Shown here one piece after another: positions 1 to 40,121 of a stretch of 64,000 nt of DNA; positions within the stretch are counted from its first letter, which is position 1; the number at the start of each line of letters is the position of its first letter. The stretch comes from Patescibacteria group bacterium (GTDB taxonomy: Bacteria; Patescibacteriota; Patescibacteriia; Patescibacteriales; UBA12465). The stretch spans positions 221 to 64,220 of the forward strand of contig JBAYIC010000002.1 of the NCBI GenBank assembly GCA_041665845.1, written 5' to 3'. The notes under the pieces were generated by a model. The model was not told where the DNA came from and ran no database searches. It was given only the letters and a program-made list of their open reading frames with translations. A program made the translations under genes and the position numbers.

Positions 1-1
1 A

Positions 2-884
2 ACTGGAACTAATGCTAGTACTCCTTCTTGCGGAACATATTGTCGCAGCAAAACTCAGACTTGTGATGTTAATGGCGCCTGGCCAGCTGATGGCTATACT
101 GGAACTGACTGCACTGCTTCAATATCTAAGACAAATAGGTATACAACCGCTTCAGTTACTTGCGGAAATACTTGTGCAACTCAGTCTCAATCTTGTACTT
201 ATGACGGTTGGGATGGCGGTTACGCGAGCTGTGCTCCGGTAACTTGCTCTGGTACTACCCCGGCTTGTGTAGCTGGAACTTGTAAGGCCTGTACTCCAAA
301 TGCGACTCGAACGATGTATGACCTCGGGACTAGCCCAGCTGGTTGCGGAACGTATTGCCGCAGTGAATCTCAAACTTGCGATGCTAATGGTAATTGGCCT
401 ACAGGCGGTTATACCGGAACATCTGATTGTACTGCTTCAATAAGTAAACTCTATAGACCAACAACTGCTTCAGTTACTTGCGGAAATACTTGCGCAACTA
501 GTCTCCAGTCTTGTACTTATGACGGTTGGACAGGTGGTTATGCAAGTTGTTCTGCAGTTTCTTGTTCCGGTTCTACTCCGGCTTGTGTAGCCGGAGCTTG
601 TAAAGCCTGTACTCCTGGAGCGACTCGAACGGCATATGAAACTGGAGGTAGTCCAGCTCAGTGCGGAATATATTGTCGTAGTAAAACTCAGACTTGTGAC
701 GCGACTGGTAATTGGCCGGCCGATGGCTATACTGGGACTAATTGTTCTGCCTTGGCTGCTACCAGAGTGGGATTTACAACAAGTTCTGTTACTTGTGGAA
801 ATACTTGTTCAACTCAGGCACAGACTTGTCTTTATGATGGTTGGAGCGGAACCGGGATTGGTGTTTGCACAGTAAATTGTTGTA
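2..884 (+). repeat. Intragenic tandem repeat with a 318-nt (106-aa) unit, about 2.8 copies; a diverged further copy starts at 1181
   Basis: Unit starts TGTACTCC..GCGACTCGAA at 290 and 608 (period 318 nt) and again at 1181. The partial first unit runs 2-289. Similarity is visible at nucleotide level, not only at protein level. Confidence 0.8.
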
Positions 885-2626
885 CGGCCAGCGCAGTAAG
901 TGGTTACTCATATAACAATATAAATTATGGTTCATCGCAAACTGGAGTAACAAAAAACGTTGCCCCGACTACTCCGGCGCCATCAAGTTATTGCACGGCC
1001 AATATTAGTTGTTCAGCGACCGGTGCGGTTACGGTTAACGGAGAAGCCGCTACTTGTAAGACGGGATTCTTTAATCAAAATAATGATTGTTCTGACGGTT
1101 GTGAATCACGATGCGGTAATGGTGTTTGTGATACAACTCTTGTAGAAACTTATGCTAATTGCGCGGGAGATTGTAATATTTGTACTCCGGGTGCGACTCG
1201 ATGGATGTATGATTCTGGTTCAGTTGCTTGCGGAATATATTGCCGTAGTGAACAACAAACTTGCCAAGCTGATCATAGTTGGAATGGTACTTATACCGGA
1301 ACAGCTGATTGCTCAACTTCATTAACCACTAGAACGCGTTATCAAATAAATACTCCTTGTGCTGCTGCTTGCGCTTCTGATACTGAAACTTGCTTATCAA
1401 CGGGAGCTTGGTACAGTGCGGCCGGTAAAGCATATACTTATGATACCTGCGTCCCGCTTACTTGCGATGGTACGGAAGATAGTATCTGCGAGGTTAATAC
1501 GTGTTCGAATAAGTGTTCTACAGCGGGGAGCCAAGATGGAGATGTATATAATGATGCTCAAGATGATGATTGTCCCGGCGGTGGCTGTGGTCAGTGTACT
1601 AGCGGTGATTGTTGCATCGTTGCCTCTGGTTGTTTTCAGCCGGTAACTCACTCTTGTGTAACCGGCTCCTGCGCTTCTCCTAGTAACGGCAATGGTTGTT
1701 CTTTTACTTATCAAAATAAATATTGTACCGGTAGCGAAGCCGCCTGTACTAATGGCGTTACCGCCGACGCTTCACCTTGGCCATGTTATTGTCCAAATGG
1801 ACAAGTTTGGAATGGAACAACTTGTGCTAATGGAAGTGATAGCGTTTGGTGTGCTCAGGGGACAACGTTTAGCTGTTTAGGCGATACTTTAGTCGCTAAT
1901 ACGCTATCTTGTAATGGGACTACTCATGCTTGTGATGTTGAAACCGGTGCGGTTACAAGAGCAACTCATGATTGTCCTGAAACCCCTTTAACCCCGGTTT
2001 GTGCGGGTGGCGTTTGTGTTGCTTGTAATGCAGATTCACAATGCGCGGAAGGCTATTATTGCCATACATCAGCTAGCTCATTCTATTGGTGTAACACTGC
2101 GACGGCCAATACTTGTCAAAAGAAATGTTGGTATTTAACTCAAACGGTAAACACGGCTTCGATTCTTGAGGGTAATATTACTGTTAGCGAGAGACAAGTC
2201 GGAGTTATTTCGGCGTATGATTGCGGTACTAGTGGTGGAACATATGCGACTACGTATGTTGACGATCCTCATTGCGATGGCGCCCCTGCCTGTCCGTATT
2301 ATTGTAGAGATGGCGGTAGTTCCGGGTATTATACTGGCTATACATCTGGAGATCAGTGCTATAAATATAGGAGTGGACCTCCCTGGGGTACGTATTGGGT
2401 AAATCGAAATAATTATAAATGTTACAGTAACGCATTGTTAAAGAAATATTATGGAGATACTTGTGCTCCTACCCTTGGCTCTACATCTGTAAATGGTGCT
2501 GTATCTTCAAGTGGTTCTTGTTATGTTCCAACGTATTGTGGTAACGGCTACTGTGATAGTGATGAAGATTGTTACATTTGTGCATATGATTGTGGCGCCT
2601 GCGAAGGAAATCCGCAGGTAGAGTAA
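2..2626 (+). CDS. Cysteine-rich extracellular repeat protein (5' end cut by window edge)
   Basis: Frame 2 is open from nt 2 (TGTNASTPSCGTYCRSKTQTCD...), so the tracked ATG at 314 is internal. I counted about 85 Cys in the 770 aa after nt 314 (~11%). Repeated unit: CTPxATR..CGxYCRSxxQTCDxxGxWPxxGYTGT..VTCGNTC..CxYDGW. Two CGNGxCD...C..DC modules (CGNGVCDTTLVETYANCAGDC; CGNGYCDSDEDCYICAYDCGAC). Stop TAA at 2624-2626. Confidence 0.75.
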   Translation, partial: TGTNASTPSCGTYCRSKTQTCDVNGAWPADGYTGTDCTASISKTNRYTTASVTCGNTCATQSQSCTYDGWDGGYASCAPVTCSGTTPACVAGTCKACTPNATRTMYDLGTSPAGCGTYCRSESQTCDANGNWPTGGYTGTSDCTASISKLYRPTTASVTCGNTCATSLQSCTYDGWTGGYASCSAVSCSGSTPACVAGACKACTPGATRTAYETGGSPAQCGIYCRSKTQTCDATGNWPADGYTGTNCSALAATRVGFTTSSVTCGNTCSTQAQTCLYDGWSGTGIGVCTVNCCTASAVSGYSYNNINYGSSQTGVTKNVAPTTPAPSSYCTANISCSATGAVTVNGEAATCKTGFFNQNNDCSDGCESRCGNGVCDTTLVETYANCAGDCNICTPGATRWMYDSGSVACGIYCRSEQQTCQADHSWNGTYTGTADCSTSLTTRTRYQINTPCAAACASDTETCLSTGAWYSAAGKAYTYDTCVPLTCDGTEDSICEVNTCSNKCSTAGSQDGDVYNDAQDDDCPGGGCGQCTSGDCCIVASGCFQPVTHSCVTGSCASPSNGNGCSFTYQNKYCTGSEAACTNGVTADASPWPCYCPNGQVWNGTTCANGSDSVWCAQGTTFSCLGDTLVANTLSCNGTTHACDVETGAVTRATHDCPETPLTPVCAGGVCVACNADSQCAEGYYCHTSASSFYWCNTATANTCQKKCWYLTQTVNTASILEGNITVSERQVGVISAYDCGTSGGTYATTYVDDPHCDGAPACPYYCRDGGSSGYYTGYTSGDQCYKYRSGPPWGTYWVNRNNYKCYSNALLKKYYGDTCAPTLGSTSVNGAVSSSGSCYVPTYCGNGYCDSDEDCYICAYDCGACEGNPQVE

Positions 2627-2699: not shown

Positions 2700-2777
2700 T
2701 AGATCAAATAAGTTAAGGTTATTAGGAAACCAAGCTTATTGTACGTTAAAAATATAAACAAATATATACGAAGAATC

Positions 2778-4736
2778 ATGAAAAATCTTGTTTTTTTTCT
2801 AGTATTATTGTTGTCTAATTTTGTTAATGGACAAAATTTGCTTGTTGTAAATGAGCAAATTTTACCTGATTCAATCGACAACATAGAATTCTTCCCACCG
2901 GCCGTGAAACAGCAAAATGTTCCCGACTGCACTCACATGGCTTTAATACGTAATTTAAAGTCATCTATTTATAACCGCGAGTATCATCGTAATCCTCAAC
3001 TGGCTGAAAACCAGTTCAGCCATACTTTTGTATGGAATCAAAACATTATTCCTGAATATGAAATGTCAACAGTTGATCAAGGGTTTTATTTTATGAAGTA
3101 TCAGGGCTGTGCTACTATCAAAGACTTTGCCGCTAATGAACAAAGTACCGAGCTTAAACCTTCGATTGAAATAAGGGAAAAAGCTTTAAAGTATAGAAGC
3201 AAACGATTGTTTGATGGCAATTTTTCCGTAGAAACTTCTTTCAAAGATAAAAATGGAGTAACAAAAAGATTAAACTCTTTAAAAGATTCCTTAAGTAAAG
3301 GAAAATGTTTTACTTTAGCTGTTTTTTTGTATAACTCCTTTTTCTTTGAGATGAATGAAAATAATAGGATGTATTCCTATTATTCTAACGCTGATTCAGA
3401 GACGCATCGTATTCCTCATGTTGTAACCGTAGTTGGTTATAATGATAGGATTGGCCACGGCGGAGCATTCAAAGTATTAGATGCTAGTACCGATAGGATT
3501 ACTGATGGAATTTTCTATCTTGATTTCAATTGGTTTTACGCCTTTAATCAGGATTTCCAATATTATTTTTTGGAAGAAGATTTCTCAGCCCCCGCTACAA
3601 CAACAGTCCTGCATCTTAGCATTTCTTCCGGCTTAATTCCCGACGATATATTCAATGGGAGATATATTTTTGCTGATACCTTGCTTAGTTTTTGGCGAGT
3701 ATTTGAAACTCGAGTAATTGATTTCCAGCATTTCTTTGATTATGCCTATAACAGAAATCAGTTCCAGGTAACAAGTATTAATGGAAATAGAATTAAGTTA
3801 AGAAGTAATCAGTTGTTTGCACCGGCTAACAATTCTGAAGGGAACTATGAAATTGTCAAAGACTTGACTGAGATTGATAATTTAAAATCACTTTCGGTTA
3901 CAGTATTTGATCCAATTTCAGCTGAGTATATTGGTGAAGCTGGTCAAACTATTTATTCTTATAGTGACAGAGCAGCAAATTGCCAAGTTAATTCTGCTAC
4001 GATTCATTTTTTAGAAACCAATAAAAATGTTCAAGCTCAAGTTACAGAGTTATCTGATACTACAATCGTAGTAAATAATTTTTATTCAGAACTGAGTTTA
4101 CTTTATTGGAATGCTGCTTGGTCTAACCCTGGATTTGTAAAAACCTGTACCTCTGTCTTAAAACGTACATTGATTACGTTTACGATTGAGGAACCTGCAA
4201 CACTGGTTATTACCAACCCTCCCAGTACGCTGAATGCTCTTACTAATAAGACTTTATCTTATTCGTTCGAGGTCCAAAACAACGATGGGCCGGTTACATT
4301 CTCTTTCCTTAACAAACCCGCCGAAGCTAGTATTACTAGCGACGGTAAGTTGACCTTTAAGTCAGCTAAAATAGGTACCTACAGATTTACTGTAATTGCC
4401 TCTAACAGCAAAGCGACGGACTCTTGCCCTGTTGCCGTTAAGGTTGAATTGGGAACTGCTACCGAGGATATCGAAATCCCCGAAGGTAGCTTTGATGTTT
4501 TTCCAAACCCGTTAAGTTATGTCGCCAATATTAAGTTCGCCTTACCTAAAAGGGGAACAGTGAACATCGGAATTTATAATTCCGTTGGACAATCTATTGG
4601 TAACATTGTTAACCAAACATATGAAGCTGGAGAACAGACTTTGGAATACGACGCTTCTAGTCTAAGAAGCGGAGTTTACATCTTTTGTCTTAAATCTGGC
4701 GCTTTCTCTAAGAGCATTAAAATAGTTAAACAATAA
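2778..4736 (+). CDS. Secreted papain-fold (clan CA-like) cysteine peptidase with Ig-like segment and T9SS type-A C-terminal sorting domain
   Basis: Signal peptide MKNLVFFLVLLLSNFVNG. Q-x5-C pattern QQNVPDC (Cys codon 2928-2930) and HVVTVVGYND (His codon 3417-3419). Ig-like stretch TLSYSFEVQNNDGPVTFSF..DGKLTF. The last 81 aa (4491-4733) read FDVFPNP..VNIGIYNSVGQ..SGVYIFCLKSG..KIVKQ, which fits the Por/T9SS CTD pattern. ATG 2778 is preferred over the tracked TTG 2739. Confidence 0.7.
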   Translation: MKNLVFFLVLLLSNFVNGQNLLVVNEQILPDSIDNIEFFPPAVKQQNVPDCTHMALIRNLKSSIYNREYHRNPQLAENQFSHTFVWNQNIIPEYEMSTVDQGFYFMKYQGCATIKDFAANEQSTELKPSIEIREKALKYRSKRLFDGNFSVETSFKDKNGVTKRLNSLKDSLSKGKCFTLAVFLYNSFFFEMNENNRMYSYYSNADSETHRIPHVVTVVGYNDRIGHGGAFKVLDASTDRITDGIFYLDFNWFYAFNQDFQYYFLEEDFSAPATTTVLHLSISSGLIPDDIFNGRYIFADTLLSFWRVFETRVIDFQHFFDYAYNRNQFQVTSINGNRIKLRSNQLFAPANNSEGNYEIVKDLTEIDNLKSLSVTVFDPISAEYIGEAGQTIYSYSDRAANCQVNSATIHFLETNKNVQAQVTELSDTTIVVNNFYSELSLLYWNAAWSNPGFVKTCTSVLKRTLITFTIEEPATLVITNPPSTLNALTNKTLSYSFEVQNNDGPVTFSFLNKPAEASITSDGKLTFKSAKIGTYRFTVIASNSKATDSCPVAVKVELGTATEDIEIPEGSFDVFPNPLSYVANIKFALPKRGTVNIGIYNSVGQSIGNIVNQTYEAGEQTLEYDASSLRSGVYIFCLKSGAFSKSIKIVKQ

Positions 4737-4775: not shown

Positions 4776-4810
4776 AAGACTCGTTACTTTTACAGTGCGA
4801 GTCTTTTTTT
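4776..4810 (+). terminator. Rho-independent terminator after the peptidase gene
   Basis: Stem AAGACTCG (4776-4783) pairs with CGAGTCTT (4798-4805). The loop is 14 nt and a T-run extends to 4810. Confidence 0.7.
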
Positions 4811-4828
4811 ATGCATTTGGATCTAAGT

Positions 4829-4855
4829 TTGACATTATTTCCGCTAAGATATAAT
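4829..4855 (+). promoter_or_regulatory. Candidate promoter of the MIO operon (TTGACA-N15-TATAAT)
   Basis: TTGACA at 4829-4834 and TATAAT at 4850-4855. The 15-nt spacer is short. A second candidate, TTGTCA 4871-4876 / TATTAT 4895-4900, lies closer to the ATG. Confidence 0.4.
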
Positions 4856-4921
4856 ATTATTTTGTAGTATTTGTCAAGTGATGTTTATTTTTTTTATTAT
4901 AACAATTAAAATTTCAAATTT

Positions 4922-6499
4922 ATGTCGATTTATAAAATTGACAATAAAAAGATTGTTTTAGCTGATTTCAATGATATTGTTAATAATTTAAATTGTAAAG
5001 TTGAAATAGATTATAAAGTAAAAAACAGTATTATTAAATCTCGTCGTTTATTAGATAAATTTGTAAAAGATGGCAGGATTATTTATGGAGTGAATACTAG
5101 TATGGGTGGTTTTGTAAATTATCTCGTTCCGATAAAATATGCGACTGAAATGCAAAATAATTTATTGTCATCAGTAGCCTCGAATGTTGGTGAATATTTC
5201 GAAGATTCTGTGGCTAGAGCTGCAATGCTAGCAAGGATTATCTCTCTTTCTAAAGGCGTCTCTGCAATAAGCCTAGACAATTTCATGATTTTAGTTGAAA
5301 TGTTTAATAAAAAAATATTTCCATGCATTCCACAAAAAGGATCGTTAGGCGCAAGTGGTGATTTGGGTCCGTTAGCATTTATTGCTTTAGTGGCAACTGG
5401 TAAATGGAAGGCAAAATATAATGGGAGAATAATGTCCGGTGCGAAGGCTATGAAAAAGGCAAAAATTTCTCTGATGACACTAAATTATAAAGAAGGCTTA
5501 GCTTTAGTTAATGGAACATCAGCTATGGCTGGTTTAGGTGCTATTACTTGGGATAGAGCCAACTCTTTATTAAATATGTATGAGTTTGTTTCTGCTCTAT
5601 CTTTTGAGGGGTTAGCAACAAAAACGAAGCCGTTCGATCCAAAAGTACATGAAAGGAAATTACATAAAGGTCAAAATTTATTTGCCCAAAGACTTTGGAA
5701 AATTTTATCTGATAGTAAATTAGCCATTAATGAAAAATCTGCTGAAAAACGTATACAACAAAAAAATAAAAATGAATTACAAAATTTAGATAGTCAAATT
5801 GAAGACGCCTATTCTTTAAGGTGTAGTCCTCAAATCCTAGGGCCAATTTATGATAATCTAAAATTTATTGGCGAAACATTGGAGAATGAAATTAATTCAA
5901 GTAGTGACAATCCTTTGATAATAGCAGATGAAGGAGACGTTTTTCATAATGGACATTTTCATGGTCAATATATTTCTATGGCTATGGATAATCTTTCTAT
6001 ATGCTTAACTACATTGTCCAATCTTTCTGACAGAAGAATTGATAGATTTATGGATAAACATAATAGTAACGGTTTGCCAGCTTTTTTGTGCAAAGAAAAG
6101 CCAGGCATTCGACTAGGATTAATGGGTGGGCAGTTTATGAGCACATCCATAACGGCGGAAAATAGATCTTTATGCGTTCCGCTATCAATTCAATCTTTAA
6201 CTTCGACTGGTGATTTTCAAGACATTGTTTCATTTGGCCTGATTGCAGCTAGGAGATGTGCAGAAATTTTAGATAATACTCTTTATATTGTAAGTTTTGA
6301 ATTACTTTGTGCCTGTCAGGCCGTTGATATAAGAGGGGCAAAAGGTTTATCGTCGTTTACGAGGCCTTTGTATAGAGAGGTGAGAAAAATAGTCCCTTAT
6401 TTTTCTTTTGATGATTCAATTACTCCGTATATTGAAGATTTAAAAGAATTGCTTGAAAATAGAAATTTAGTTAAAAAACTCGTAGCATTAATTGGTTAA
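4922..6499 (+). CDS. MIO-dependent aromatic amino acid ammonia-lyase / 2,3-aminomutase family protein (HAL/PAL/TAL/TAM family)
   Basis: GSLGASGDLGPLAF contains the Ala144-Ser145-Gly146 MIO-forming triad (nt 5351-5359). Inner-loop Tyr lies in IIYGVNTSMGGF. Length is 525 aa, typical of bacterial members. Confidence 0.85.
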   Translation: MSIYKIDNKKIVLADFNDIVNNLNCKVEIDYKVKNSIIKSRRLLDKFVKDGRIIYGVNTSMGGFVNYLVPIKYATEMQNNLLSSVASNVGEYFEDSVARAAMLARIISLSKGVSAISLDNFMILVEMFNKKIFPCIPQKGSLGASGDLGPLAFIALVATGKWKAKYNGRIMSGAKAMKKAKISLMTLNYKEGLALVNGTSAMAGLGAITWDRANSLLNMYEFVSALSFEGLATKTKPFDPKVHERKLHKGQNLFAQRLWKILSDSKLAINEKSAEKRIQQKNKNELQNLDSQIEDAYSLRCSPQILGPIYDNLKFIGETLENEINSSSDNPLIIADEGDVFHNGHFHGQYISMAMDNLSICLTTLSNLSDRRIDRFMDKHNSNGLPAFLCKEKPGIRLGLMGGQFMSTSITAENRSLCVPLSIQSLTSTGDFQDIVSFGLIAARRCAEILDNTLYIVSFELLCACQAVDIRGAKGLSSFTRPLYREVRKIVPYFSFDDSITPYIEDLKELLENRNLVKKLVALIG

Positions 6500-6503
6500 A
6501 TAT

Positions 6504-7730
6504 ATGCATAAAAAAAGAATTTTGTTTTGTGGCAACGGATTAAGTTGTGAAATTATAAAAACTCTTAAAGATAGCTATGAAATTTTTATGATTTCTGATT
6601 TTTCTAATGATATCGGTATAGAATATGTTGATAAGTTAATTATTGCAGAATCAAAAAACCCCGAAGCCGCCTTAAAAGCAGCCATCGAATTAAGTGAACA
6701 GGGCTATACTTTTGATGCAGTTTTAAGTTTGTGTTGGGACTCGGGGATGTCTGTTTCTAAAATTGCTGAACATTTTGGTTTGCCTAGTGTTCCCTTTGAT
6801 GTGTCTTATAGATCAACCATTAAATCGTTACGTTCTAAAATATTTGAAGACAATAATATACCGGCACCGAAATATAAATTAAGCACAAGTAAAAATGATT
6901 TTCTCTCCAAAATTAAAGAAATCGGTTTGCCCGTCGTTCTCAAACCAGTTAACTTGTCATCATCAAAAGGGGTTATATTATTAGAAAAAATGTCAGAACT
7001 TGAAAATGCTTATAACTATTGCACGGGTTTCGCCAAAAGTCAGGATGTTATCATTAATGAGTATATAGAGGGGGTGGAATATAGCACCGAAGGATTAATG
7101 GTCAAAGGAAAATATTATATGACGGGAATTTCAGAAAGAGTGTTTCATTATCAAAAATGTAAACCACTTTTTGTAGAAATAGGCGATATTATGCCGACCT
7201 TATTGAGTGAAGATGAAATATCCAAATTTTCTGAAGTTACCGAAAAAGCAGCTTTAGCATTAGGAATTACGGATGGAGTAGCAAAAGGCGATTTGATTTA
7301 TACCAACAAGAAAGAAATTAAAGTTTTTGAGATTACTCCTCGTTTGGGCGGGCCAAGATTTGGCACAGAAATGATTCCATTAAGTAACGGTACCGATATT
7401 TTAAGAGCGGCCATACAACAAGCTCTGGGGGAGGAAATAAATATGGATTATTTAAAAATAAAATTTAATAGAGGAATGGTTAATTGGTCCATCTTTCCAA
7501 ATCCTGGTAAGATAAAAAGTGTAAGAGGTTTGGATGAGATAAAAAATATGCCTGGTTATTATGATTTTAAGTGGTGGGGGGTAAGAACTTTAAGGATAGG
7601 AGATATAATTCCGAAACCCGAAAATATGTGCGGTGGCGTTGGTTATATTATTGCTACTGGTCAAAATAGAGAAGAAGCAATTTTAAATGCCAACAACATA
7701 GAGAAAAAAATTATTATAGAAACGGAGTAA
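6504..7730 (+). CDS. ATP-grasp carboxylate-amine ligase (L-amino-acid-ligase-like)
   Basis: ATP-grasp segments VVLKPVNLSSSKGV, INEYIEGVEYSTEG and VFEITPRLGG. At 408 aa it is a stand-alone enzyme. First ATG is 6504; the tracked TTG 6492 overlaps the upstream stop. Confidence 0.75.
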   Translation: MHKKRILFCGNGLSCEIIKTLKDSYEIFMISDFSNDIGIEYVDKLIIAESKNPEAALKAAIELSEQGYTFDAVLSLCWDSGMSVSKIAEHFGLPSVPFDVSYRSTIKSLRSKIFEDNNIPAPKYKLSTSKNDFLSKIKEIGLPVVLKPVNLSSSKGVILLEKMSELENAYNYCTGFAKSQDVIINEYIEGVEYSTEGLMVKGKYYMTGISERVFHYQKCKPLFVEIGDIMPTLLSEDEISKFSEVTEKAALALGITDGVAKGDLIYTNKKEIKVFEITPRLGGPRFGTEMIPLSNGTDILRAAIQQALGEEINMDYLKIKFNRGMVNWSIFPNPGKIKSVRGLDEIKNMPGYYDFKWWGVRTLRIGDIIPKPENMCGGVGYIIATGQNREEAILNANNIEKKIIIETE

Positions 7731-7765
7731 ATTGAAGCGAGAATAGCAATATTAGTAAATATTTT

Positions 7766-8746
7766 ATGATTAAATTAGATATTTCAAATCAAATTAAACT
7801 AAACGAGGATGTAATCAAAAAATTGCTAAGTGTTTATGATGTTAAATATCAGAGTTATAAATTAATAAAATTTGGAATAGAAAATATTAGCGCCTTTATT
7901 TCAACTAAAGAAGGGAAGTTTGTCCTACGAGTTTATAGAAATAATAATAAAAAATTAAGTGATATAAAACTTGAACTCGAGTTCATGGCATTCTTAAGAA
8001 AGAATGGTGTTAAAACTCCGAAAATAATTGGAAATCATCACAAGCAATCCCTCAGTAGGAAGAAAATTGACAATAAGTTTTGGAATTATATTTTAATGGA
8101 ATTTGTAGACGGAGCACATTTAAAATACAATCAAATTAATTTAATTTCTTCCTTAGCTAAAGCGCAGGCGATTATCCATAAACATACCTCTAAATTTAAA
8201 ATAATTTCAAAAGATTATCATAATTTCAGAAATAGATTGAATTCATTTGTTTCAGAATATAAAACTAATAAGCCCTTTATCTATAACAAGTATGGTGAGG
8301 AATTAACTATTGAAACTATAGAAGAGGTTGTACATGATTTAAAGAAAAATTTAGATGCTCTGCAAAAACTTCCATCAGGCTTAGTGCATCTTGATTATCA
8401 CGGTTCAAACATTTTAGTAAAGGACAACAAAATTAATGGAATTATTGATTTTGATGATTTATCTTTCAGTCCGTTTGTTGCCGATTTAGCTAATTCTTTA
8501 TTATGGTGGACATATTTAAATCAAACTAAAAACATTCAAAAAATAAAAGAGAAATATTTACTGGAATATCAAAAATATAGAAAATTGTCTAGAAATGAAC
8601 TAGCTTTAGTCGCATTGCTCATGAGATGGAGAAATGTGTCAGTCGGATTAAATCTGGAAAATTTCAAAAGAATGACAAAAAAAGATTGGCAAAGAATAAC
8701 AAATTTTGATTTATTATTAAAAAATGATATTGATTTTAAAGATTAA
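7766..8746 (+). CDS. APH/choline-kinase-type phosphotransferase (homoserine kinase type II-like)
   Basis: Catalytic loop LVHLDYHGSNILV (HxDxxxxN) and metal-binding GIIDFDD. N-terminal lobe contains FVLRVYR. Confidence 0.75.
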   Translation: MIKLDISNQIKLNEDVIKKLLSVYDVKYQSYKLIKFGIENISAFISTKEGKFVLRVYRNNNKKLSDIKLELEFMAFLRKNGVKTPKIIGNHHKQSLSRKKIDNKFWNYILMEFVDGAHLKYNQINLISSLAKAQAIIHKHTSKFKIISKDYHNFRNRLNSFVSEYKTNKPFIYNKYGEELTIETIEEVVHDLKKNLDALQKLPSGLVHLDYHGSNILVKDNKINGIIDFDDLSFSPFVADLANSLLWWTYLNQTKNIQKIKEKYLLEYQKYRKLSRNELALVALLMRWRNVSVGLNLENFKRMTKKDWQRITNFDLLLKNDIDFKD

Positions 8747-8749
8747 AAA

Positions 8750-10102
8750 ATGCCTATTATGAAAATAAGAAGTGTGCCAAGAATATATACAAAATACCGT
8801 AAGATATTCGGGATTGTCCCTAATGTGGGTACTTTAAAAAAAATTAAAGAACTTCAAAAATTAGAGCCAGTTTGTATGAGCGGACAATCAGAAACTATTT
8901 GGGATCATGCCGAGGAAGTGAATGTATATGATGTATATGGTAATAAATGGTTAGATTTTTCATCTGGAGTATTAATCACTAATGCTGGCCATGGTAATAA
9001 TGCAATAGTTCAGGCAATTATTAATCAAGTTTCCAAACCGCTTCTTACCAGTTATTGTTTTCCTAATCAGCCCAGAATAGATTTAATAAAAAAAATTGCC
9101 TCCTTGTCTCCGCGTGGTTACAAGACTTTATTATTGAGTACGGGGTCTGAAAGTACTGAGGTATTACTAAAATTAATGCGCACCTATGGTAGCAAAATAA
9201 AGAAAAACCGAAATATTATTATTAGCTTTCAGGGAGCATTTCATGGCCGGACATTAGGAGCACAACAAATGGGTGGATCGCCGGCTCTTAAAAGTTGGAT
9301 TAAAAATATTGATTCAGAAATTGTGCAGGTTCCTTTCCCGGATGGCTTCCGTTGCAAAAACACAAGTTTTCAATTATTTAAACAATCATTAAATAAATTA
9401 GGCATTAATCCTCGAAATATTGCTGGAGTTATTAGCGAAACTTATCAGGGCGGTGGTCCATATTTTTTCCCAAAAGCTTATGTGAAGGAATTACGATTTT
9501 GGTGTAATAAATATGATATTTTGCTTTGTCTTGATGAGGTGCAGTCTGGCTTTGGTAGGTGCGGAAAACAGTGGGGATTTCAGCATTATGATATAGTCCC
9601 TGACTTGTTTGCTGTTGGCAAAGGAATTAGTAGCTCTCTTCCCATCAGCGCCGTTATAGGTCGTCCGGATGTAATGGACTTATATGGTCCGAATGAAATG
9701 ACCAGTACTCATTCCGGCAATCCGGTTTGTTGCGCAGCGGCTTTAGCAAATATAAATTATATAAAAAATAATAAATTAATACAAAATGCATCCAAGCTTG
9801 GGGCTATACTTAATAGCAGATTGCTAGAAATGCAAAATTGCTTCCCTGAATTTATAGGTTTTGTATCTTCAGTCGGTTTAGTAGGAGGAATTCATATAGT
9901 ACAGCAGGGGACAATAAAACCAGACGGCGAGTTAGCAAAAAAAATTGTTAATTTGTGTTATAAAAATGGTTTAATGATGTTTGCTCCTGTTGGTACTGGC
10001 GGCGCATGTATTAAAATTGCGCCGCCTCTTTGTATAACAGAAGAAGCTCTTAAAGAAGGTTGTGATGTAATTTTTGAATCTTTAGCAGAATTACTCCATT
10101 AA
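8750..10102 (+). CDS. Class-III pyridoxal-phosphate enzyme (omega-aminotransferase / phospho-lyase family)
   Basis: Motifs NAGHGNN, STGSESTE, DEVQSGFGRCGK and AVGKGISSSLP (Schiff-base Lys). 450 aa. Confidence 0.85.
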   Translation: MPIMKIRSVPRIYTKYRKIFGIVPNVGTLKKIKELQKLEPVCMSGQSETIWDHAEEVNVYDVYGNKWLDFSSGVLITNAGHGNNAIVQAIINQVSKPLLTSYCFPNQPRIDLIKKIASLSPRGYKTLLLSTGSESTEVLLKLMRTYGSKIKKNRNIIISFQGAFHGRTLGAQQMGGSPALKSWIKNIDSEIVQVPFPDGFRCKNTSFQLFKQSLNKLGINPRNIAGVISETYQGGGPYFFPKAYVKELRFWCNKYDILLCLDEVQSGFGRCGKQWGFQHYDIVPDLFAVGKGISSSLPISAVIGRPDVMDLYGPNEMTSTHSGNPVCCAAALANINYIKNNKLIQNASKLGAILNSRLLEMQNCFPEFIGFVSSVGLVGGIHIVQQGTIKPDGELAKKIVNLCYKNGLMMFAPVGTGGACIKIAPPLCITEEALKEGCDVIFESLAELLH

Positions 10103-10133
10103 AGAAAATATTATATTTGTTTCTATAATAAAA

Positions 10134-10157
10134 AATCCCCTGACGCCCCAGGGGATT
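10134..10157. terminator. Bidirectional hairpin terminator between the convergent PLP-enzyme gene and serS
   Basis: AATCCCCTG (10134-10142) pairs with CAGGGGATT (10149-10157). The loop is 6 nt. An A-run lies upstream and T-rich sequence downstream. Confidence 0.7.
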
Positions 10158-10179
10158 ATTTGTAAAATTGATTTAGAGT

Positions 10180-11499
10180 TTATTTGTTTCGGATAATATC
10201 ATACTTAACTGGCATGAAGTTTTTTATAACCTCCGGTATGATAATGCTTCCATCTTTTTGTTGGTGATTTTCCAGAAGAGCAATAAAAATTCTTGGACTC
10301 GGCAGAGCGGTGTTGTTGAGCATAAATACATGCTTTTTTTTACCGTCTGATGCCTGATATCTAACATTAAGTCTCCTAGATTGCCAATCGAGAAAATTAC
10401 TAGCTGAGCCGGTTTCGCCCCAATAATTTAATCCCGGCATCCAAGCTTCAATATCAAACATTCTGTATTTTCCCAAGCCCATATCACCAGTACAAATTTG
10501 AATTTGACGATATGGAATCTCTAACTCTTTGTGCATTTCTGCAGACAATTTAATCATTTCGTTTTGCAGATAATTCGCTTCCTCGACATTAGCTTTTAGA
10601 ATGATTACTTGTTCAACCTTCATGAATTCGTGCACCCGATAAATTCCTTGGTTGAATTTTCCGTAACTGCCTATTTCACGACGATAACATTGGCTGAAGC
10701 CACACATTTTTAGGGGCAGCAGACTTTCATCTAAAGTCTCTCCGGCGTAATAAGACAATAATGACGGTTCTGCTGTTCCAACTAAGAACTGCATTTTTTC
10801 ATTTGCATTTTTATCTTTTTCTTTGTTTAATCCAGTCACCTCATAAATATCATCAACATCTGAATTATATTCAGAACCCTTGAAATAGCCACTGCCAAAA
10901 AGAGTTGAACCATTTACAAGCGTAGGAACTATCATTGGAGAAAAACCGTTGATAATCATTTTATTCATAGCATACATCATGAATCCTAACATTAATGAAA
11001 CCCCTTCATTCATGACATAATACCCGCGGTAGCCCGCTACTTTAGATCCTCTTTCCAAATCTAATATGTTGAGTGTTTTGCCCAGTTGAATATGGTTTTT
11101 AGGGACAAAAGAAAACTTGGGAATTTCTTTTGATCTAAATATTTCAACATTGTCTTTATCATCTTTTCCTGTTGGCGTATCAGGTGAGGTGATGTTTGGA
11201 ACTAAAACCATAAGATTAATAAATTCCTTTTCCATTTGAGCATATTGCGGCTCTAATTCGGCAAGCTTGTTTTTAAGCAATTTGCCTTGTTGAATTTTGC
11301 CGGGCTTTTCTTCTTTGGCGATGGAATTATTGTCAAATAGGTTTTTTTTCTCAGATCTGAGTTGCTCAATTATTTTTAGCAACTCTTTTTTTTCTGCATT
11401 GAGAGCAAACAAACGATTCAAGTCTAAATCTACTTTTTTTTCAAAAATAGCTCGACGAACCTCTGCTTCATTTTCTTTAATAAAATTAATACTTAGCAT
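10180..11499 (-). CDS. serS: Seryl-tRNA synthetase
   Basis: N-terminal coiled-coil arm. Class II motifs YRVHEFMKVE, GSASNFLDWQSRRLNVRY and NNTALPSPRIFIALLENHQ. Confidence 0.95.
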   Translation of the reverse strand: MLSINFIKENEAEVRRAIFEKKVDLDLNRLFALNAEKKELLKIIEQLRSEKKNLFDNNSIAKEEKPGKIQQGKLLKNKLAELEPQYAQMEKEFINLMVLVPNITSPDTPTGKDDKDNVEIFRSKEIPKFSFVPKNHIQLGKTLNILDLERGSKVAGYRGYYVMNEGVSLMLGFMMYAMNKMIINGFSPMIVPTLVNGSTLFGSGYFKGSEYNSDVDDIYEVTGLNKEKDKNANEKMQFLVGTAEPSLLSYYAGETLDESLLPLKMCGFSQCYRREIGSYGKFNQGIYRVHEFMKVEQVIILKANVEEANYLQNEMIKLSAEMHKELEIPYRQIQICTGDMGLGKYRMFDIEAWMPGLNYWGETGSASNFLDWQSRRLNVRYQASDGKKKHVFMLNNTALPSPRIFIALLENHQQKDGSIIIPEVIKNFMPVKYDIIRNK

Positions 11500-12231: not shown

Positions 12232-12912
12232 ATGAGTTACAACGATTTAATAAATGAGAAACCTTTAAGCAGAATAACCAAGAAAATGAAACTTAGTATG
12301 GTGTTGGTTTTGTTAGTTCTTGTCTTGGTTGTTGTTTTTTTCTTAATTTCTAATAAAAAATCTCAACTCAGCCAAAACCTTGAGCCGACTCAAAATGGTG
12401 TAGACGCTGGAGCAACAAACAGCGCGGCGACTGATGCGGCTGATAATAACTTGCCAAATGCTAATACCGTTATCGCTAAAGATACTAGGGCAGTTGTTCC
12501 AGGTGGAAATGCGGTTGATAATAGTGGTCGCGTTGTAACCGAGGATGGCGTAGTAACAACAAATTCAGTTGCTCCTATGTCTGATAATGCTCCAAAACAA
12601 ACAGGATTTTTAAAAAAAGAAGAGTTGTCGGCTACAGTTTTTAAAATCGATGTTGGTAATAAAAAATTTGTTCCGAATGAATTTACAACCAAAACTGGCC
12701 GTCCAACAACCTTTGCTTTAACAAGTATTGATAAAGAAGTCCATAATTTATCTTTTACCGACCCGCGCCTATCAGCGGTTGCGGTTGTGGTCGGCCCCAA
12801 TCAAACAGGAGCAATTACTTTTAATGCTCCAGAGCCGGGAGTCTATACTTTCCATTGTACTTTTCCGGGGCATACCGGAGACGGTGAAACCGGAAAGATG
12901 ATAGTTCAATAA
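12232..12912 (+). CDS. Membrane-anchored cupredoxin-domain protein (candidate type-1 copper site)
   Basis: N-terminal TM anchor. C-terminal domain carries candidate ligands: His in EVHNLSF, Cys and His in FHCTFPGH, and Met in GKMIVQ. Confidence 0.65.
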   Translation: MSYNDLINEKPLSRITKKMKLSMVLVLLVLVLVVVFFLISNKKSQLSQNLEPTQNGVDAGATNSAATDAADNNLPNANTVIAKDTRAVVPGGNAVDNSGRVVTEDGVVTTNSVAPMSDNAPKQTGFLKKEELSATVFKIDVGNKKFVPNEFTTKTGRPTTFALTSIDKEVHNLSFTDPRLSAVAVVVGPNQTGAITFNAPEPGVYTFHCTFPGHTGDGETGKMIVQ

Positions 12913-12930
12913 TTATCCTAAATTTAAATT

Positions 12931-13521
12931 ATGAATAATAAGAAAAAAATACTTTTCGCCCTGGGGATAATTGTTGTTATTTTATTAATAATTGTAATTA
13001 TTTTAGAACTTAAAAAAGATGCGGCTCCGCAAGTTTCTCAAGCACCAATTGTAAATAATTATATTCCTGACGGAAAAACCGCTTCATCTGCTCCGCGTGA
13101 TTGGGAAGAAACTGTTGCTAGAAAAGAAGTCCCGGTAGGCGTTAAAGTCCCGGAACCAAGCGATATCATCCCCGATAATTTGAAGAATGAAATCGCCGTT
13201 CCGAGTGCTGCTGTTTCCGCCGGTTCTAGCGAAACTAAAACTGCTCAAATTAGAATATTTAAAATTGAAGGTAAGGACGGAAAATTTATCCCGTCTAAAA
13301 TAATTGCTAATTATAATGATATAGTAAATATTCAATTTGCGGCTATTGATCGTGATTATGATATAGTTTTTGCTGGTTATAATATTAAGCAAAGTGCTAA
13401 GCAGGGACAAACAAGTTTTATTGAATTTCAAGCCCTTTTAGACGGACGTTTTCCATACTACTGCGTTTCTTGCGGAGGGTCAGAAACAAATTATCAAGGA
13501 GAAATAATAATTGTAAAATAA
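12931..13521 (+). CDS. Membrane-anchored cupredoxin-like paralogue lacking the His ligands
   Basis: Same architecture as the neighbour (FIPSKI vs FVPNEF; YYC vs FHC; GEIIIVK vs GKMIVQ). The His positions read YDIVF and SCGGS, and the axial position is Gln. Confidence 0.55.
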   Translation: MNNKKKILFALGIIVVILLIIVIILELKKDAAPQVSQAPIVNNYIPDGKTASSAPRDWEETVARKEVPVGVKVPEPSDIIPDNLKNEIAVPSAAVSAGSSETKTAQIRIFKIEGKDGKFIPSKIIANYNDIVNIQFAAIDRDYDIVFAGYNIKQSAKQGQTSFIEFQALLDGRFPYYCVSCGGSETNYQGEIIIVK

Positions 13522-14185: not shown

Positions 14186-16656
<2,471 letters not shown>

Positions 16657-18932: not shown

Positions 18933-19019
18933 GGAGAGGTCGCATAGTGGTCGATTGCGCTCGCTTGGAAAGCGGGTAAGGTGTTAAAGCCTTCGAGGGT
19001 TCAAATCCCTCTCTCTCCG
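18933..19019 (+). tRNA. tRNA-Ser (anticodon GGA)
   Basis: Acceptor GGAGAGG pairs with TCTCTCC. Anticodon stem CTCGC/GCGGG carries the loop TTGGAAA. Long variable arm AAGGTGTTAAAGCCTT. T arm GAGGG-TTCAAAT-CCCTC. Discriminator G. Only CC (not CCA) follows. Confidence 0.9.
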
Positions 19020-19030
19020 CCGATGTTTCA

Positions 19031-29355: not shown

Positions 29356-30573
29356 ATGAACAAAACATATCAAAATCGTCCTTATTATTTAAACAAGATT
29401 AGGCCTTTTATTGGGTTGGATTTGATTAAGGTTTTAATCGGGCAACGTCGGGTGGGTAAAAGCTATATTTTATTTCAGTTAATGGATGAAATTAAAACTA
29501 AGAATAAAAAAGCAAACATCGTTTATATTAATAAAGAAGAAAATGAGTATGATGCTATTGTTGATTATCGTGATTTAATTACTTATGCCGAACAACGCAT
29601 CAAGCGAGGTGTAAAGAATTATTTATTTATTGATGAAATTCAGGATATCGAAAATTTTGAAAAGGCTTTGCGTCATTTAGCCGCTAAGAAAATTTTTGAT
29701 TTATATTGTACAGGTAGTAACGCTCGTTTGTTGTCTTCGGAAATTGCTACTGGCCTATCGGGGCGTTATATCGAAATCCCTATTCATGCCTTGTCTTATC
29801 AAGAGTTCTTGCAATTTCATAACCTTAAATCTAGCGAAGAAACATTAAATAAATATATACGCTATGGCGGGTTGCCGTTTTTGGCTAACTTAGATTTAAA
29901 AGATGAAATCGTTTATGGTTATTTACAAAGCATTTATAGTACCATTGTTTTAAAAGATGTTGTTGCTCGGTTTAATATAAGAAATATTAATTTTCTTAAT
30001 CGGTTATTAGAGTATGTCGCTGATAATATTGGTTCTTTGGTATCAGCCAAAAGGATAAGTGATTTTTTAAAGTCACAAAAAACTCAAACAACGCCAAATA
30101 AAGTTTTAGATTATTTATCCTATTTATGCTCTAGTTTTATTATTAGCGAGGTTAATCGGGCGGATATTAAGGGTAAAAAGATTTTTGAAATTAATGAAAA
30201 ATATTATTGGGAAGATTTAGGTTTACGAAATTCTTTAGTTGGCTATAAATCAGTTGAAATTGGCCAGATGTTAGAAAATTTAGTTTTTTTACACTTATCA
30301 AGATTAGGATTTAAAGTTAATGTTGGTCAGCTGGAAAATAAAGAAATTGATTTTGTGGCTGAAAAAGAGGGAAAGAAAATTTATGTTCAAGTCGCTTATT
30401 TAATTAGCAATAAATCAGTTAAGGAGAGGGAGTTTGGCAATTTATTAGAGATACCAGATAATTATCAAAAAATTGTTGTTTCTATGGATAAATTAATAGG
30501 CGAAGGCTATAAAGGTGTTAAGCATTATCATATTATGGATTTTTTGCAGGATGATACAATATTATTTGTTTAA
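29356..30573 (+). CDS. AAA-type ATPase with C-terminal DUF4143-like nuclease-fold domain
   Basis: Walker A GQRRVGKS and Walker B LFIDEIQ. C-terminal EIDFVAEKEGKKIYVQV. Confidence 0.75.
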   Translation: MNKTYQNRPYYLNKIRPFIGLDLIKVLIGQRRVGKSYILFQLMDEIKTKNKKANIVYINKEENEYDAIVDYRDLITYAEQRIKRGVKNYLFIDEIQDIENFEKALRHLAAKKIFDLYCTGSNARLLSSEIATGLSGRYIEIPIHALSYQEFLQFHNLKSSEETLNKYIRYGGLPFLANLDLKDEIVYGYLQSIYSTIVLKDVVARFNIRNINFLNRLLEYVADNIGSLVSAKRISDFLKSQKTQTTPNKVLDYLSYLCSSFIISEVNRADIKGKKIFEINEKYYWEDLGLRNSLVGYKSVEIGQMLENLVFLHLSRLGFKVNVGQLENKEIDFVAEKEGKKIYVQVAYLISNKSVKEREFGNLLEIPDNYQKIVVSMDKLIGEGYKGVKHYHIMDFLQDDTILFV

Positions 30574-30584
30574 TTTGACTTTAA

Positions 30585-31877: not shown

Positions 31878-31881
31878 TTAT

Positions 31882-34072: not shown

Positions 34073-34087
34073 ACCGTATAATACAAA

Positions 34088-34108
34088 AGAGGCCATTTTA
34101 AAGCCTCT
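34088..34108. terminator. Hairpin between convergent genes
   Basis: AGAGGC (34088-34093) pairs with GCCTCT (34103-34108). The loop is 9 nt. Confidence 0.45.
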
Positions 34109-34113
34109 CTTTG

Positions 34114-34899
34114 TTAGTTGTCATTATAATCGCTATCTTCCAGTTTGTATAATTTCCAGTATTTGCTAGTTAGGGACATATTTTTCGTTAACGGAGTTCC
34201 TTGGTAATCTGCCAAAGTCATTGGCTCAACTTTACTGCCGCCAGCGATTGCGTAATCATACATCGATATTTTTTTATCACCGCAGATATGAATTATAGGT
34301 TGTTTTGGTTCTTCGCTTACAATATCTTTCAGCCCTTTGGCAACCCCTTGGGCAAATAAATATGTTCCATATCTATCAGTAAAGGCTTTTGGGTATTTCC
34401 AGGGCATGCTGGTAAAATTAGTTCTCACTATAGTTACTTTCATTTTTTGGCTATTGTATGTTTTTGCAATTTCTTCCGCTACATATTTTGTTAATCCGTA
34501 ATAATGTTTCGGATAGGGGAGACTATCCTCGTCCTCCATCGTCTCGTTATCAGTACCCGGGAATATACAGGCAGTATTTAGATATATAAAATGCTTAACT
34601 CCATTTTTCTTGGATATATTTATGATGTTTTTTGTTCCCTTAACGTTTGTTTCATATGCTTCCCGTTGGTTGGTTTCGCATAACGGAATATCGGCCATAG
34701 CCGCTAAATGAATAACAATATTAATTTGTTTATTTAAAAAGTACGTTATTATACTTTTTTTATCTAGTATATTTAACTCAGTGCTATTCGGATATTGTGC
34801 ATTTGGAAATATTTTTTTACAAGCTTTACCAAGCCTACCAGAACCACCCGTAAATAATATTTTTTCTTCTTTTATCATACTATTTAATAAATCCTCCAT
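34114..34899 (-). CDS. SDR-family sugar-nucleotide 4-reductase/epimerase (RmlD/FnlB-like)
   Basis: Rossmann FTGGSGRLG and YxxxK in YYGLTKYVAEE. 261 aa. An alternative start lies at 34878. Confidence 0.7.
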   Translation of the reverse strand: MEDLLNSMIKEEKILFTGGSGRLGKACKKIFPNAQYPNSTELNILDKKSIITYFLNKQINIVIHLAAMADIPLCETNQREAYETNVKGTKNIINISKKNGVKHFIYLNTACIFPGTDNETMEDEDSLPYPKHYYGLTKYVAEEIAKTYNSQKMKVTIVRTNFTSMPWKYPKAFTDRYGTYLFAQGVAKGLKDIVSEEPKQPIIHICGDKKISMYDYAIAGGSKVEPMTLADYQGTPLTKNMSLTSKYWKLYKLEDSDYNDN

Positions 34900-35872: not shown

Positions 35873-35873
35873 A

Positions 35874-40104: not shown

Positions 40105-40121
40105 AAATGCCGTTTATATTT

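Follow-up and report, generated by a model that had tools for sequence, protein, structure and literature searches.

We analysed a stretch of 64,000 nucleotides (nt) from a Patescibacteria group bacterium (assembly GCA_041665845.1, contig JBAYIC010000002.1 of 132 kb, positions 221 to 64,220 of the forward strand), referred to here as the window, with all coordinates counted from its first letter. The host is a Patescibacteria/Moranbacteria-like bacterium of the Candidate Phyla Radiation (CPR). Our subject is an operon of four genes on the plus strand, together with the convergent gene for a seryl-tRNA synthetase (SerRS). Gene 1 (4922-6499) is predicted to encode a phenylalanine 2,3-aminomutase of the AdmH type that depends on the 4-methylideneimidazole-5-one (MIO) prosthetic group; gene 2 (6504-7730) encodes an ATP-grasp amide ligase of the L-amino-acid-ligase (LAL) type with a LAL_C2 domain; gene 3 (7766-8746) encodes a small-molecule kinase of the aminoglycoside phosphotransferase (APH)/choline-kinase fold; and gene 4 (8750-10102) encodes a class-III aminotransferase dependent on pyridoxal phosphate (PLP). 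The list of open reading frames (ORFs) agrees with the original prediction of four co-directional genes at these positions, separated by 4, 35 and 3 nt, and the longest ORF of gene 2 begins earlier, at an alternative TTG start at 6492. The serS gene (minus strand, 10180-11499), which encodes a SerRS of the native Patescibacteria type, was absent from that prediction. It lies 77 nt downstream of gene 4, with which it has a terminator in common, and it is the most informative neighbour of the operon.

The operon enzymes and their cluster family

The product of gene 1 scored 867.9 bits against the model for phenylalanine aminomutases that form D-β-phenylalanine (D-β-Phe; TIGR04475, cut-off 800), and fell below the cut-offs for HutH (446.5 against 539), tyrosine mutase (398 against 501) and phenylalanine ammonia-lyase (259 against 519); it also failed the model for tyrosine ammonia-lyase (TAL). 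The family-level match (PF00221) reached 508.8 bits. Among structures, AdmH (3unv) was matched at 647 bits, and the next match, to structures of histidine ammonia-lyase, TAL and tyrosine aminomutase, at no more than 295 bits. The Ala-Ser-Gly triad that defines the MIO family, named in the original prediction, is present as A144-S145-G146 in SLGASGDLG (nt 5351-5359). Because of the curated equivalog match and the close relationship to AdmH, the enzyme should turn L-Phe into D-β-Phe, which is the (S)-isomer. The earlier idea of a self-contained pathway built on a β-amino acid is supported by these two matches. AdmH (PaPAM), presumably EC 5.4.3.11, is a full-length homologue with the same MIO motif, the same inner-loop sequence and the same predicted product. 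It serves andrimid formation, a pathway of nonribosomal peptide and polyketide synthase machinery, whereas the β-Phe of the window would pass to a stand-alone ATP-grasp enzyme, and in a CPR host. An aminomutase of Pseudomonas fluorescens R124 is reportedly the subject of a paper by Csuka et al. Histidine catabolism was considered as an alternative role for gene 1 and ruled out: the HutH score lies below its cut-off, AdmH is much closer, and neither hutU nor hutI was found among the called genes of the homologous loci that we fetched, so that both scores and neighbourhoods speak against a canonical HutH.

Gene 2 matched PF13535 (52.1 bits) and the LAL_C2 domain (PF18603; 50.2 bits, cut-off 29.4), with BL00235 (3vot, ~66 bits) and BacD (44 bits) as its nearest structures. 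Residues K147 and E276 and the block RLGGPRFGT are invariant in its family. This family is rare: only about 6-8 clusters at 50 % identity scored above ~240 bits among 1.84 billion representatives, and beyond them the search reached a plateau of generic LAL-like proteins. No plasmid-borne copy of the ligase was found in PLSDB. With BacD/YwfE, BL00235, RizA and TabS the enzyme has in common the ATP-grasp fold, the LAL_C2 domain and a stand-alone architecture of ~410 amino acids. Such ligases make small peptide antibiotics, often Trojan-horse dipeptides. Gene 2 differs from them in forming a distinct, rare family and in its predicted substrates, where a β-amino acid and an amino acid of sugar origin take the place of two L-α-amino acids. 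Its genomic context predicts a β-amino acid as the nucleophile and a sugar-derived acid as the partner, and we predict more specifically that the carboxylate of an amino-deoxy-hexonic acid is joined to the amine of β-Phe.

The context in question is a family of clusters that extends far beyond the window. Every fetched locus with enough flanking sequence has an AdmH-type MIO gene close to its ATP-grasp gene of the gene 2 type; a few short contigs stop before any MIO gene could appear and were left out of this statement. We count ~20 dereplicated lineages across many phyla, and a scan of reference genomes yielded 8 loci, none of them from the genome of the window. The pair occurs in Bacillus subtilis, Pseudomonas, Streptococcus ruminantium, Enterococcus columbae, a Chlamydiae metagenome-assembled genome (MAG), Mycoavidus, Alphaproteobacteria, Desulforhabdus, Symbiopectobacterium, Stutzerimonas and many metagenome contigs, and the MIO and ATP-grasp trees are broadly congruent. 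The exact set of four genes was found on one other contig only, locus L021 (loci are cited by such numbers where they need to be told apart), which fits the earlier remark that no cluster with this set has been characterised. In the open literature, to which our search was confined with subscription papers outside it, we found no description of the cluster family, of its link to SerRS or of a pyloricidin gene cluster.

Around the aminomutase and the ligase, the clusters carry one of two sets of genes. Type A has a GFO/IDH/MocA oxidoreductase, a dehydrogenase of the tartronate-semialdehyde-reductase family and an ArgE/DapE deacylase, often with a TviB-like 6-dehydrogenase and a TviC-like epimerase (391 bits for TviB, 250 for TviC and 208 for the deacylases; the reductase is nearest to the tartronate-semialdehyde type). 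Type B, to which the window belongs, has a class-III aminotransferase, often with a GT4 glycosyltransferase and a major facilitator superfamily (MFS) transporter. The two types are intermixed in the trees, where the window and L021 nest with the type-A clusters L012 and L023, and the modules have therefore been swapped round a constant core of aminomutase and ligase. By the same token they look functionally equivalent, and both could deliver the same kind of acid, ending in a 5-amino-5-deoxy-hexonic acid. In type A, a UDP-N-acetylhexosamine could be oxidised to the uronic acid by the TviB-like enzyme, epimerised by the TviC-like enzyme, reduced at its C1 aldehyde and N-deacetylated. In type B, a hexuronate could be converted to a 5-keto-hexonate by an IolB/KduI-like isomerase and then transaminated. 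Two loci bear on the latter route. In L013, the Chlamydiae MAG, a single protein of 712 amino acids (7773-9911, minus strand) combines a KduI/IolB isomerase with the class-III aminotransferase, an arrangement that implies consecutive reactions; in L015, from Mycoavidus, the aminotransferase lies directly downstream of a KduI/IolB isomerase (178 bits on the IolB model).

Other members add genes to this core. The B. subtilis clusters (L001-L003; GCA_008369185.1 and GCA_009676665.1) are of type A and contain a stand-alone A-T didomain protein (adenylation plus carrier protein) and an ABC transporter, without a SerRS gene. A distant cousin, L043 (2551-17224 of a Stutzerimonas nitrititolerans-type contig; ATP-grasp 39 % and MIO 43 % identical), holds a UDP-sugar 6-dehydrogenase, an epimerase, an aminotransferase, a GT4 glycosyltransferase, an MFS exporter, LuxI/LuxR, an AMP-binding enzyme and a carrier-protein/thioesterase protein, which suggests production of a related metabolite under quorum-sensing control. 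Taken over all loci, the family is rare and horizontally spread. Insertion sequence (IS) elements are numerous in L008 (1-17230; IS21, IS66, DDE and rve types), where ~5 kb of transposase genes separate the MIO gene from the ATP-grasp gene, and a phage-type integrase (5078-5704, minus strand) adjoins the cluster SerRS in L019; both features point to mobility.

Gene 4 is a generic member of its class by score: it matched Aminotran_3 (PF00202) at 283.7 bits, reached no equivalog model, and is about equally distant from γ-aminobutyrate transaminases and class-III racemases. Its Schiff-base residue, Lys291 in AVGKGIS (nt 9620-9622), aligned with the catalytic Lys region of 5wya. It scored 297 bits on aminotransferase models as against 214 on the model for the lyase PbfA (cut-off 525). 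Orthologues with 41-49 % identity are found in the type-B clusters, and in L008, L013, L015, L019 and L043 they occur without the kinase. Its predicted substrate is a keto- or aldehydo-hexonate formed from a hexuronate, which it would aminate.

The kinase encoded by gene 3 (PF01636, 95.8 bits) has its motifs intact, namely the Brenner motif H208-x-D210-x4-N215 in VHLDYHGSN and the metal-binding D228-F-D230 in IIDFDD, and H208, D210, N215, D228 and D230 are invariant across 8 members of its family. Only 8 relatives were found among 5.8 billion proteins, 3 of them in the present cluster family. In a confident AlphaFold2 model (pLDDT 86) the nearest folds are homoserine kinase II, AmiN, aminopropanol kinase and N-acetylhexosamine kinase, with a template-modelling (TM) score of 0.75 at 19 % identity to homoserine kinase II (2ppq). 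An assignment as homoserine kinase type II (ThrB_alt) was rejected on equivalog scores of 106.9 against 271 and 70.5 against 255.9. The kinase is also present in L021, which repeats the five-gene layout of the window, and a relative with 48 % identity sits in the type-A clusters L022, L023 and L027, where there is no class-III enzyme. For that reason the kinase belongs to the cluster family and not to the PLP enzyme. In amicoumacin producers, the self-resistance kinase AmiN phosphorylates the hydroxy-amino-acid moiety of this translation inhibitor and the phosphatase AmiO reactivates it (PMC6156654). AmiN structures rank 2-5 among the fold matches of the window kinase; identity to them is only 14-18 %, however, and the window operon has no phosphatase partner. 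By analogy, we predict that the kinase O-phosphorylates the product, or the amino-alcohol moiety of it, either to protect the producer or to give a prodrug. Two more distant kinase relatives (L024 and L025, 37-40 % identity) lie in unrelated contexts, one among NUDIX, VanY and M23 genes and the other beside DegT-type aminotransferases, an epimerase and a FemAB-like protein; the latter setting is that of another amino-sugar pathway.

SerRS linkage and motif 2

The window SerRS scored 378 bits on TIGR00414 (cut-off 301.65), and its nearest relatives are SerRS of Candidatus Moranbacteria/Parcubacteria at 58-64 % identity. In L021, serS occupies the same convergent position. In the Moranbacteria relative L026, serS lies between a transporter gene and a MatE gene without any cassette, and no synteny around serS is conserved between that locus and ours. 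Over the cluster family, a SerRS gene was found within or beside the cluster in 13 of ~18 evaluable dereplicated lineages (window/L021, L008/9, L013, L015, L019, L004/5, L016, L010/11, L022/23/27, L030, L032/33, L036 and L041). If the chance of finding such a gene within 10 kb is at most ~2 %, a rough estimate, this recurrence is far beyond chance, with the qualification that the lineages are not fully independent. No SerRS gene was found in the clusters of Bacillus, Streptococcus, Enterococcus, Symbiopectobacterium and the distant Stutzerimonas.

The linked genes fall in at least 5 SerRS clades, which suggests repeated recruitment. All cluster copies pass the serS equivalog model, and they are probably catalytically active. 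The copy in the Pseudomonas cluster is 36 % identical to E. coli SerRS and finds its best match in the Protein Data Bank (PDB) in 2dq0, which we take to be an archaeal SerRS from Pyrococcus; on these two grounds we consider it a foreign second copy. On the metagenome contig L030 there are two SerRS genes with a mutual identity of 30 %, one at the head of the type-A operon (4879-6162, plus strand) and one downstream (15253-16395, minus strand). For resistant second copies of aminoacyl-tRNA synthetases (aaRSs) in the producers of albomycin, mupirocin and indolmycin, an identity of ~30 % is reported (PMC9437257), a figure that the L030 pair matches. The resemblance to the albomycin/SerRS2, mupirocin/IleRS and indolmycin/TrpRS systems therefore lies in divergent aaRS genes in or beside the clusters, as well as in the degree of divergence seen in L030 and in the Pseudomonas copy. 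Albomycin differs in its chemistry, the present clusters involving neither a nucleoside nor a siderophore. The window SerRS, moreover, is a native type with point substitutions and not clearly a foreign paralogue like SerRS2, and resistance here is putative.

These substitutions lie in motif 2 of the window SerRS (10645-10689, minus strand), which reads C-Y-R-R274-E-I-G-S-Y-G-K-F282-N283-Q-G and so carries S274R, D282F and T283N. In related SerRS, residue 274 is Ser in all 114 sequences, position 282 holds Asp in 107 of them with Glu in the other 7, and residue 283 is Thr in 109. Within that alignment the only proteins without Ser at 274 are those of the two cassette carriers, the window and L021. 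The corresponding motifs of E. coli (CFRSEAGSYGRDTRG) and T. thermophilus (FR256-S-E258AG) both have Ser. Among the cluster-linked SerRS, by comparison, Ser was seen in 0 of 14; there were 7 with Arg, 2 with Thr, 2 with Val or Ile and 2 with Lys, and the non-operon copy of L030 also has Lys. Over the 163 alignment columns that are at least 95 % conserved, the window/L021 SerRS deviates at 12, and its relatives at a mean of 2.2±2.6 (median 1, maximum 13). Because of the recurrent linkage and the convergent substitution, we propose that SerRS is the target of the cluster product and that the window SerRS is an adapted, insensitive form of it.

Substitution rates are consistent with joint inheritance of these genes. 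Between the window and L021, dS is 0.80-1.02 and dN/dS 0.05-0.20 over all five genes. The value for serS (dS 0.886, dN/dS 0.060) is like those of the cassette genes, with dN/dS of 0.052 for the aminomutase, 0.053 for the ligase and 0.067 for the aminotransferase. All five genes are under purifying selection, at equal dS, and serS has been co-inherited with the cassette. The kinase stands apart at a dN/dS of 0.196, evolving 3-4 times faster than its operon partners (~0.05-0.07), and it also has the lowest GC content. Together these hint at a separate origin, or at relaxed or diversifying selection.

A gene for tRNA-Ser (anticodon GGA; 18933-19021, plus strand) is the only tRNA gene of the window and lies at a distance of ~7.4 kb from serS, or ~8.8 kb if measured from the cassette. 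Its proximity to serS is worth recording given the SerRS theme and may be coincidence.

A candidate pathway and its alternatives

Taking these observations together, we are largely confident that the operon is a biosynthetic cassette for the ligation of β-Phe rather than a catabolic one, and we lean, by a modest preference, towards a SerRS-directed pseudo-dipeptide as its product. In outline, the operon would be a functional, minimal member of a rare mobile cassette family whose invariant core is an AdmH-type aminomutase and a LAL-type ATP-grasp ligase. The aminomutase would convert L-Phe to D-β-Phe. The class-III aminotransferase would aminate a keto- or aldehydo-acid derived from a hexuronate to give an amino-deoxy-hexonic acid, most likely the 5-amino-5-deoxy form; we suggest this because the orthologous aminotransferase genes are fused or adjacent to IolB/KduI and because a module of TviB, TviC, aldehyde reductase and deacylase replaces the aminotransferase in the sister clusters. 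The ATP-grasp enzyme would then activate the carboxylate of this acid as an acyl phosphate and amidate it with the amine of β-Phe, yielding a pseudo-dipeptide like the core of the pyloricidins. More speculatively, the kinase would phosphorylate the product at a hydroxyl group or at its 1,2-amino-alcohol end and so hold it in an inactive form within the producing cell, in the way that AmiN acts on amicoumacin. Once exported and dephosphorylated, the product would inhibit SerRS, to which the producer's own enzyme (S274R, D282F, T283N) would be insensitive. A small, possibly phosphorylated, dipeptide-like metabolite, one of two options offered in the original prediction, remains the best reading. 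The most specific version of it, in which this CPR host itself makes a phosphorylated β-Phe/amino-hexonate pseudo-dipeptide that inhibits SerRS and protects itself through rewired motif 2 of its only SerRS and masking by the kinase rather than by a spare enzyme, is a tentative proposal and we consider it rather doubtful in its entirety.

The comparison with pyloricidins deserves comment. Pyloricidins A-C, from Bacillus sp., consist of a β-D-Phe amide of (2S,3R,4R,5S)-5-amino-2,3,4,6-tetrahydroxyhexanoic acid, N-capped with Leu/Val. The enzymes of both cluster types could make both of the building blocks, and the aminomutase is of the D-β-Phe type. The window differs in having no enzyme for the N-terminal Leu/Val cap, that is, no second ligase or adenylation enzyme, and in having a kinase instead. 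The B. subtilis cluster with its A-T didomain is a candidate for the pyloricidin gene cluster; we know of no published gene cluster or target for these compounds.

Several points weigh against the pathway as drawn. The link to pyloricidins is drawn from their chemistry, and we infer every step beyond the first from sequence and context. The weakest point is the source of the keto acid in the CPR host: the window has no IolB/KduI isomerase and no orthologous glycosyltransferase or MFS transporter (its glycosyltransferase matches, at 32-34 kb, are to generic GT4 genes), the operon lacks an exporter, and hexuronate metabolism is not visible in the window. The amine could sit at C5, C6 or C2. As for the target, the Firmicutes clusters lack SerRS; the SerRS of the window and L021 could simply be a divergent outgroup pair, one relative having 13 deviations; and the window SerRS is typical of its lineage and not an obvious second copy. 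Its adjacency to the operon in this one lineage could be a historical accident. Residue 274 lies on a β-strand between the ATP-binding Arg and the Glu, and the side chain there may face out of the adenylate pocket. Moreover, archaeal/eukaryotic-type SerRS among the PDB matches presumably have Lys naturally at this position. The kinase, finally, could equally be a pathway enzyme. The capsule glucuronamide pathway of Campylobacter jejuni, in which Cj1437 is presumably the aminotransferase, resembles the proposed one in that an ATP-grasp enzyme amidates a hexuronate carboxylate and a phosphorylated intermediate takes part; by analogy, a phosphorylated intermediate could be the ligase substrate here.

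That same pathway lends substance to a reading in which the cassette decorates a cell-surface glycan, the uronic acid of a capsule or wall polysaccharide, or of its nucleotide-sugar precursor, being amidated with β-Phe, and in which the SerRS linkage has some other cause. In C. jejuni the ATP-grasp enzyme Cj1438C amidates the C6 carboxylate of glucuronate with amine phosphates as its substrates, and dephosphorylation follows, Cj1435 being the phosphatase (PMC11800379). Sister clusters do hold nucleotide-sugar enzymes like TviB and TviC of the Vi capsule, as well as GT4 glycosyltransferases, and the window has a polysaccharide locus at ~29-43 kb. That locus, however, is 19 kb from the cassette, which is insulated by terminators; the called cluster genes include no polymerase, flippase or initiating transferase, but rather MFS/ABC exporters, a deacylase, the A-T didomain in Bacillus and LuxI/LuxR; and the ligase is of the LAL type and not TupA-like. 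Divergent second SerRS copies and motif-2 substitutions would also be left unexplained, and we therefore regard glycan decoration as unlikely. We would give about the same small chance to a biosynthetic SerRS, whose seryl-adenylate or Ser-tRNA would add serine to a β-Phe scaffold in the manner of VlmL in valanimycin formation or of amino acid:carrier protein ligases. Dedicated SerRS paralogues and such ligases are documented (PMC9437257), and a SerRS that is tied to 13 lineages, that heads the operon in some of them (L010, L030, L032), and that passes the equivalog model and so is probably active, would suit this role. Yet the called genes include no candidate for a tRNA-dependent transferase (Fem-, GNAT- or CDPS-like) and no carrier protein except the Bacillus A-T didomain, whose cluster has no SerRS; the window SerRS is of the ordinary lineage type; and the same core is kept in clusters without SerRS, which argues that SerRS is not needed for assembly.

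Two further explanations turn on the class-III enzyme. Transamination of β-Phe by ω-transaminases is documented, with (S)-selectivity (PMC6150868), and gene 4 is a generic class-III member without an equivalog match. It could thus be an ω-type β-Phe transaminase that makes or degrades β-Phe through 3-oxo-3-phenylpropanoate, with the ATP-grasp enzyme and the kinase in accessory salvage roles. Such turnover of β-Phe is quite improbable: most aminomutase clusters, being of type A, have no aminotransferase at all, an orthologue of gene 4, where there is one, is joined to a sugar-acid isomerase or sits next to it, and synthesis of β-Phe followed by its deamination would be futile. The original suggestion of a β/ω-amino-acid transaminase acting on β-Phe loses its footing on the first of these counts. 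The other option named there was a kinase and phospho-lyase pair (of the AGXT2L/hydroxylysine-kinase or aminopropanol kinase type) for salvage or degradation of an amino alcohol. The two genes are indeed adjacent, 3 nt apart, the kinase weakly matches the APH domain of the fusion families PRK06148/PRK06149 (E ~1e-8 to 1e-9), and aminopropanol kinase 6ef6 stands at fold rank 6. The two genes do not co-vary, however, the kinase relative of L022/L023 and L027 occurring without a class-III gene and the class-III orthologues of the five loci named above without a kinase; gene 4 scores higher as an aminotransferase than as a lyase; and its orthologues keep company with a sugar-acid isomerase. We consider a salvage pair highly improbable and prefer the SerRS-directed pseudo-dipeptide as an explanation of the operon.

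The components of the proposed system are of known kinds, namely an MIO mutase, a LAL-type ligase, a resistance-type kinase and a target-copy aaRS. What is new is the way in which they are combined, the existence of two supply modules, the presence of such a cassette in a CPR bacterium and the adaptation that a single native SerRS seems to have undergone. If the proposal is true, an orphan class of compounds, the β-Phe amides of amino-sugar acids such as the pyloricidins, would gain both genes and a molecular target, and there would be a second class of natural SerRS inhibitors after albomycin, spread over more than 8 phyla and accompanied by at least 5 independent recruitments of SerRS. SerRS is essential and, to our knowledge, clinically unexploited, with albomycin as the only well-known natural inhibitor. 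The convergent recruitment of a resistance gene would then be usable as a beacon for genome mining, and one unusual building block would be reached by two interchangeable enzymatic routes. CPR bacteria are thought to be episymbionts with minimal metabolism; the operon would be one of very few antibiotic-like biosynthetic cassettes among them, and its product could mediate the dealings of the host bacterium with its own hosts or competitors. Since only five small genes are involved, the proposal is directly testable by expression in E. coli.

Flanking signals and surrounding genes

A terminator-like element precedes the operon (4776-4812, plus strand), made up of a hairpin at 4776-4805 and a U-run. 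The fold of the hairpin is stable at -12.9 kcal/mol (z = -4.41; 0 of 200 shuffles equally stable), in agreement with the terminator that had been read there, and it probably closes the upstream gene (2739-4736) and insulates the operon. The promoter-like boxes that had also been noted fared less well. A sigma-70-like candidate, TTGACA-17-TAATAT, does exist at 4829-4857 (plus strand), ~65 nt 5' of the first ATG, and matches 10 of 12 consensus positions; it is weak evidence, because such matches are frequent in the AT-rich DNA of the window (39 seen against 27.9±6.0 expected from shuffles, ~1.4-fold). Rfam models gave no riboswitch, T-box or leader RNA 5' of the operon, the one hit in the window being the tRNA, and the folding of the 5' region is unremarkable (z = +0.42). 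Between the operon and serS lies the bidirectional hairpin of the original prediction (10128-10163, core 10134-10157), which does fold on both strands (z against shuffles: plus strand -5.94, minus strand -3.95) and is best read as a terminator common to the two convergent units; the terminator scan reports it on the minus strand only, that is, for serS. It is kept in L021 except for one loop base.

The operon had been described as compositionally distinct, a compact low-GC block. Gene by gene this does not hold: its GC content is 0.324, that of the window 0.348 and that of the 36 other genes 0.349±0.036 (range 0.287-0.45), so that a low-GC island was rejected, the operon being within one standard deviation of the other genes. 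The kinase gene, at 0.262, is the only operon gene below the range of the others.

The rest of the window encodes LigA, GatA, GluRS, TyrRS, Asp/AsnRS, HolB, a surface-polysaccharide locus and a P-type ATPase, a gene content that bears out the earlier impression of a reduced genome dominated by housekeeping functions. The polysaccharide locus (29356-43588) comprises a flippase, at least 3 GT4 glycosyltransferases, a UDP-GlcNAc 4,6-dehydratase-like enzyme, a UDP-GlcNAc 2-epimerase and an initiating sugar transferase; its glycosyltransferases are not orthologous to those of the type-B clusters. Closer to serS, two tandem genes (12232-13521, plus strand) encode cupredoxin-domain proteins of 226 and 196 amino acids with weak similarity to the C-terminal copper domain of NosZ, an unusual pair in a fermentative CPR genome. 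The gene directly 5' of the operon (2739-4736, plus strand) encodes a protein of 665 amino acids with a Por_Secre_tail C-terminal sorting domain of the type IX secretion system (E = 7e-10). This domain is a hallmark of Bacteroidota and is unexpected on a Patescibacteria contig. Beyond it, an ORF of 770 amino acids (314-2626) had no match in Pfam or NCBIfam. This ORF lies in the first part of the window (1-2626), of which the first ~2 kb has a GC content of 0.45-0.47 as against ~0.35 elsewhere, and the high-GC start of the window may be foreign DNA.

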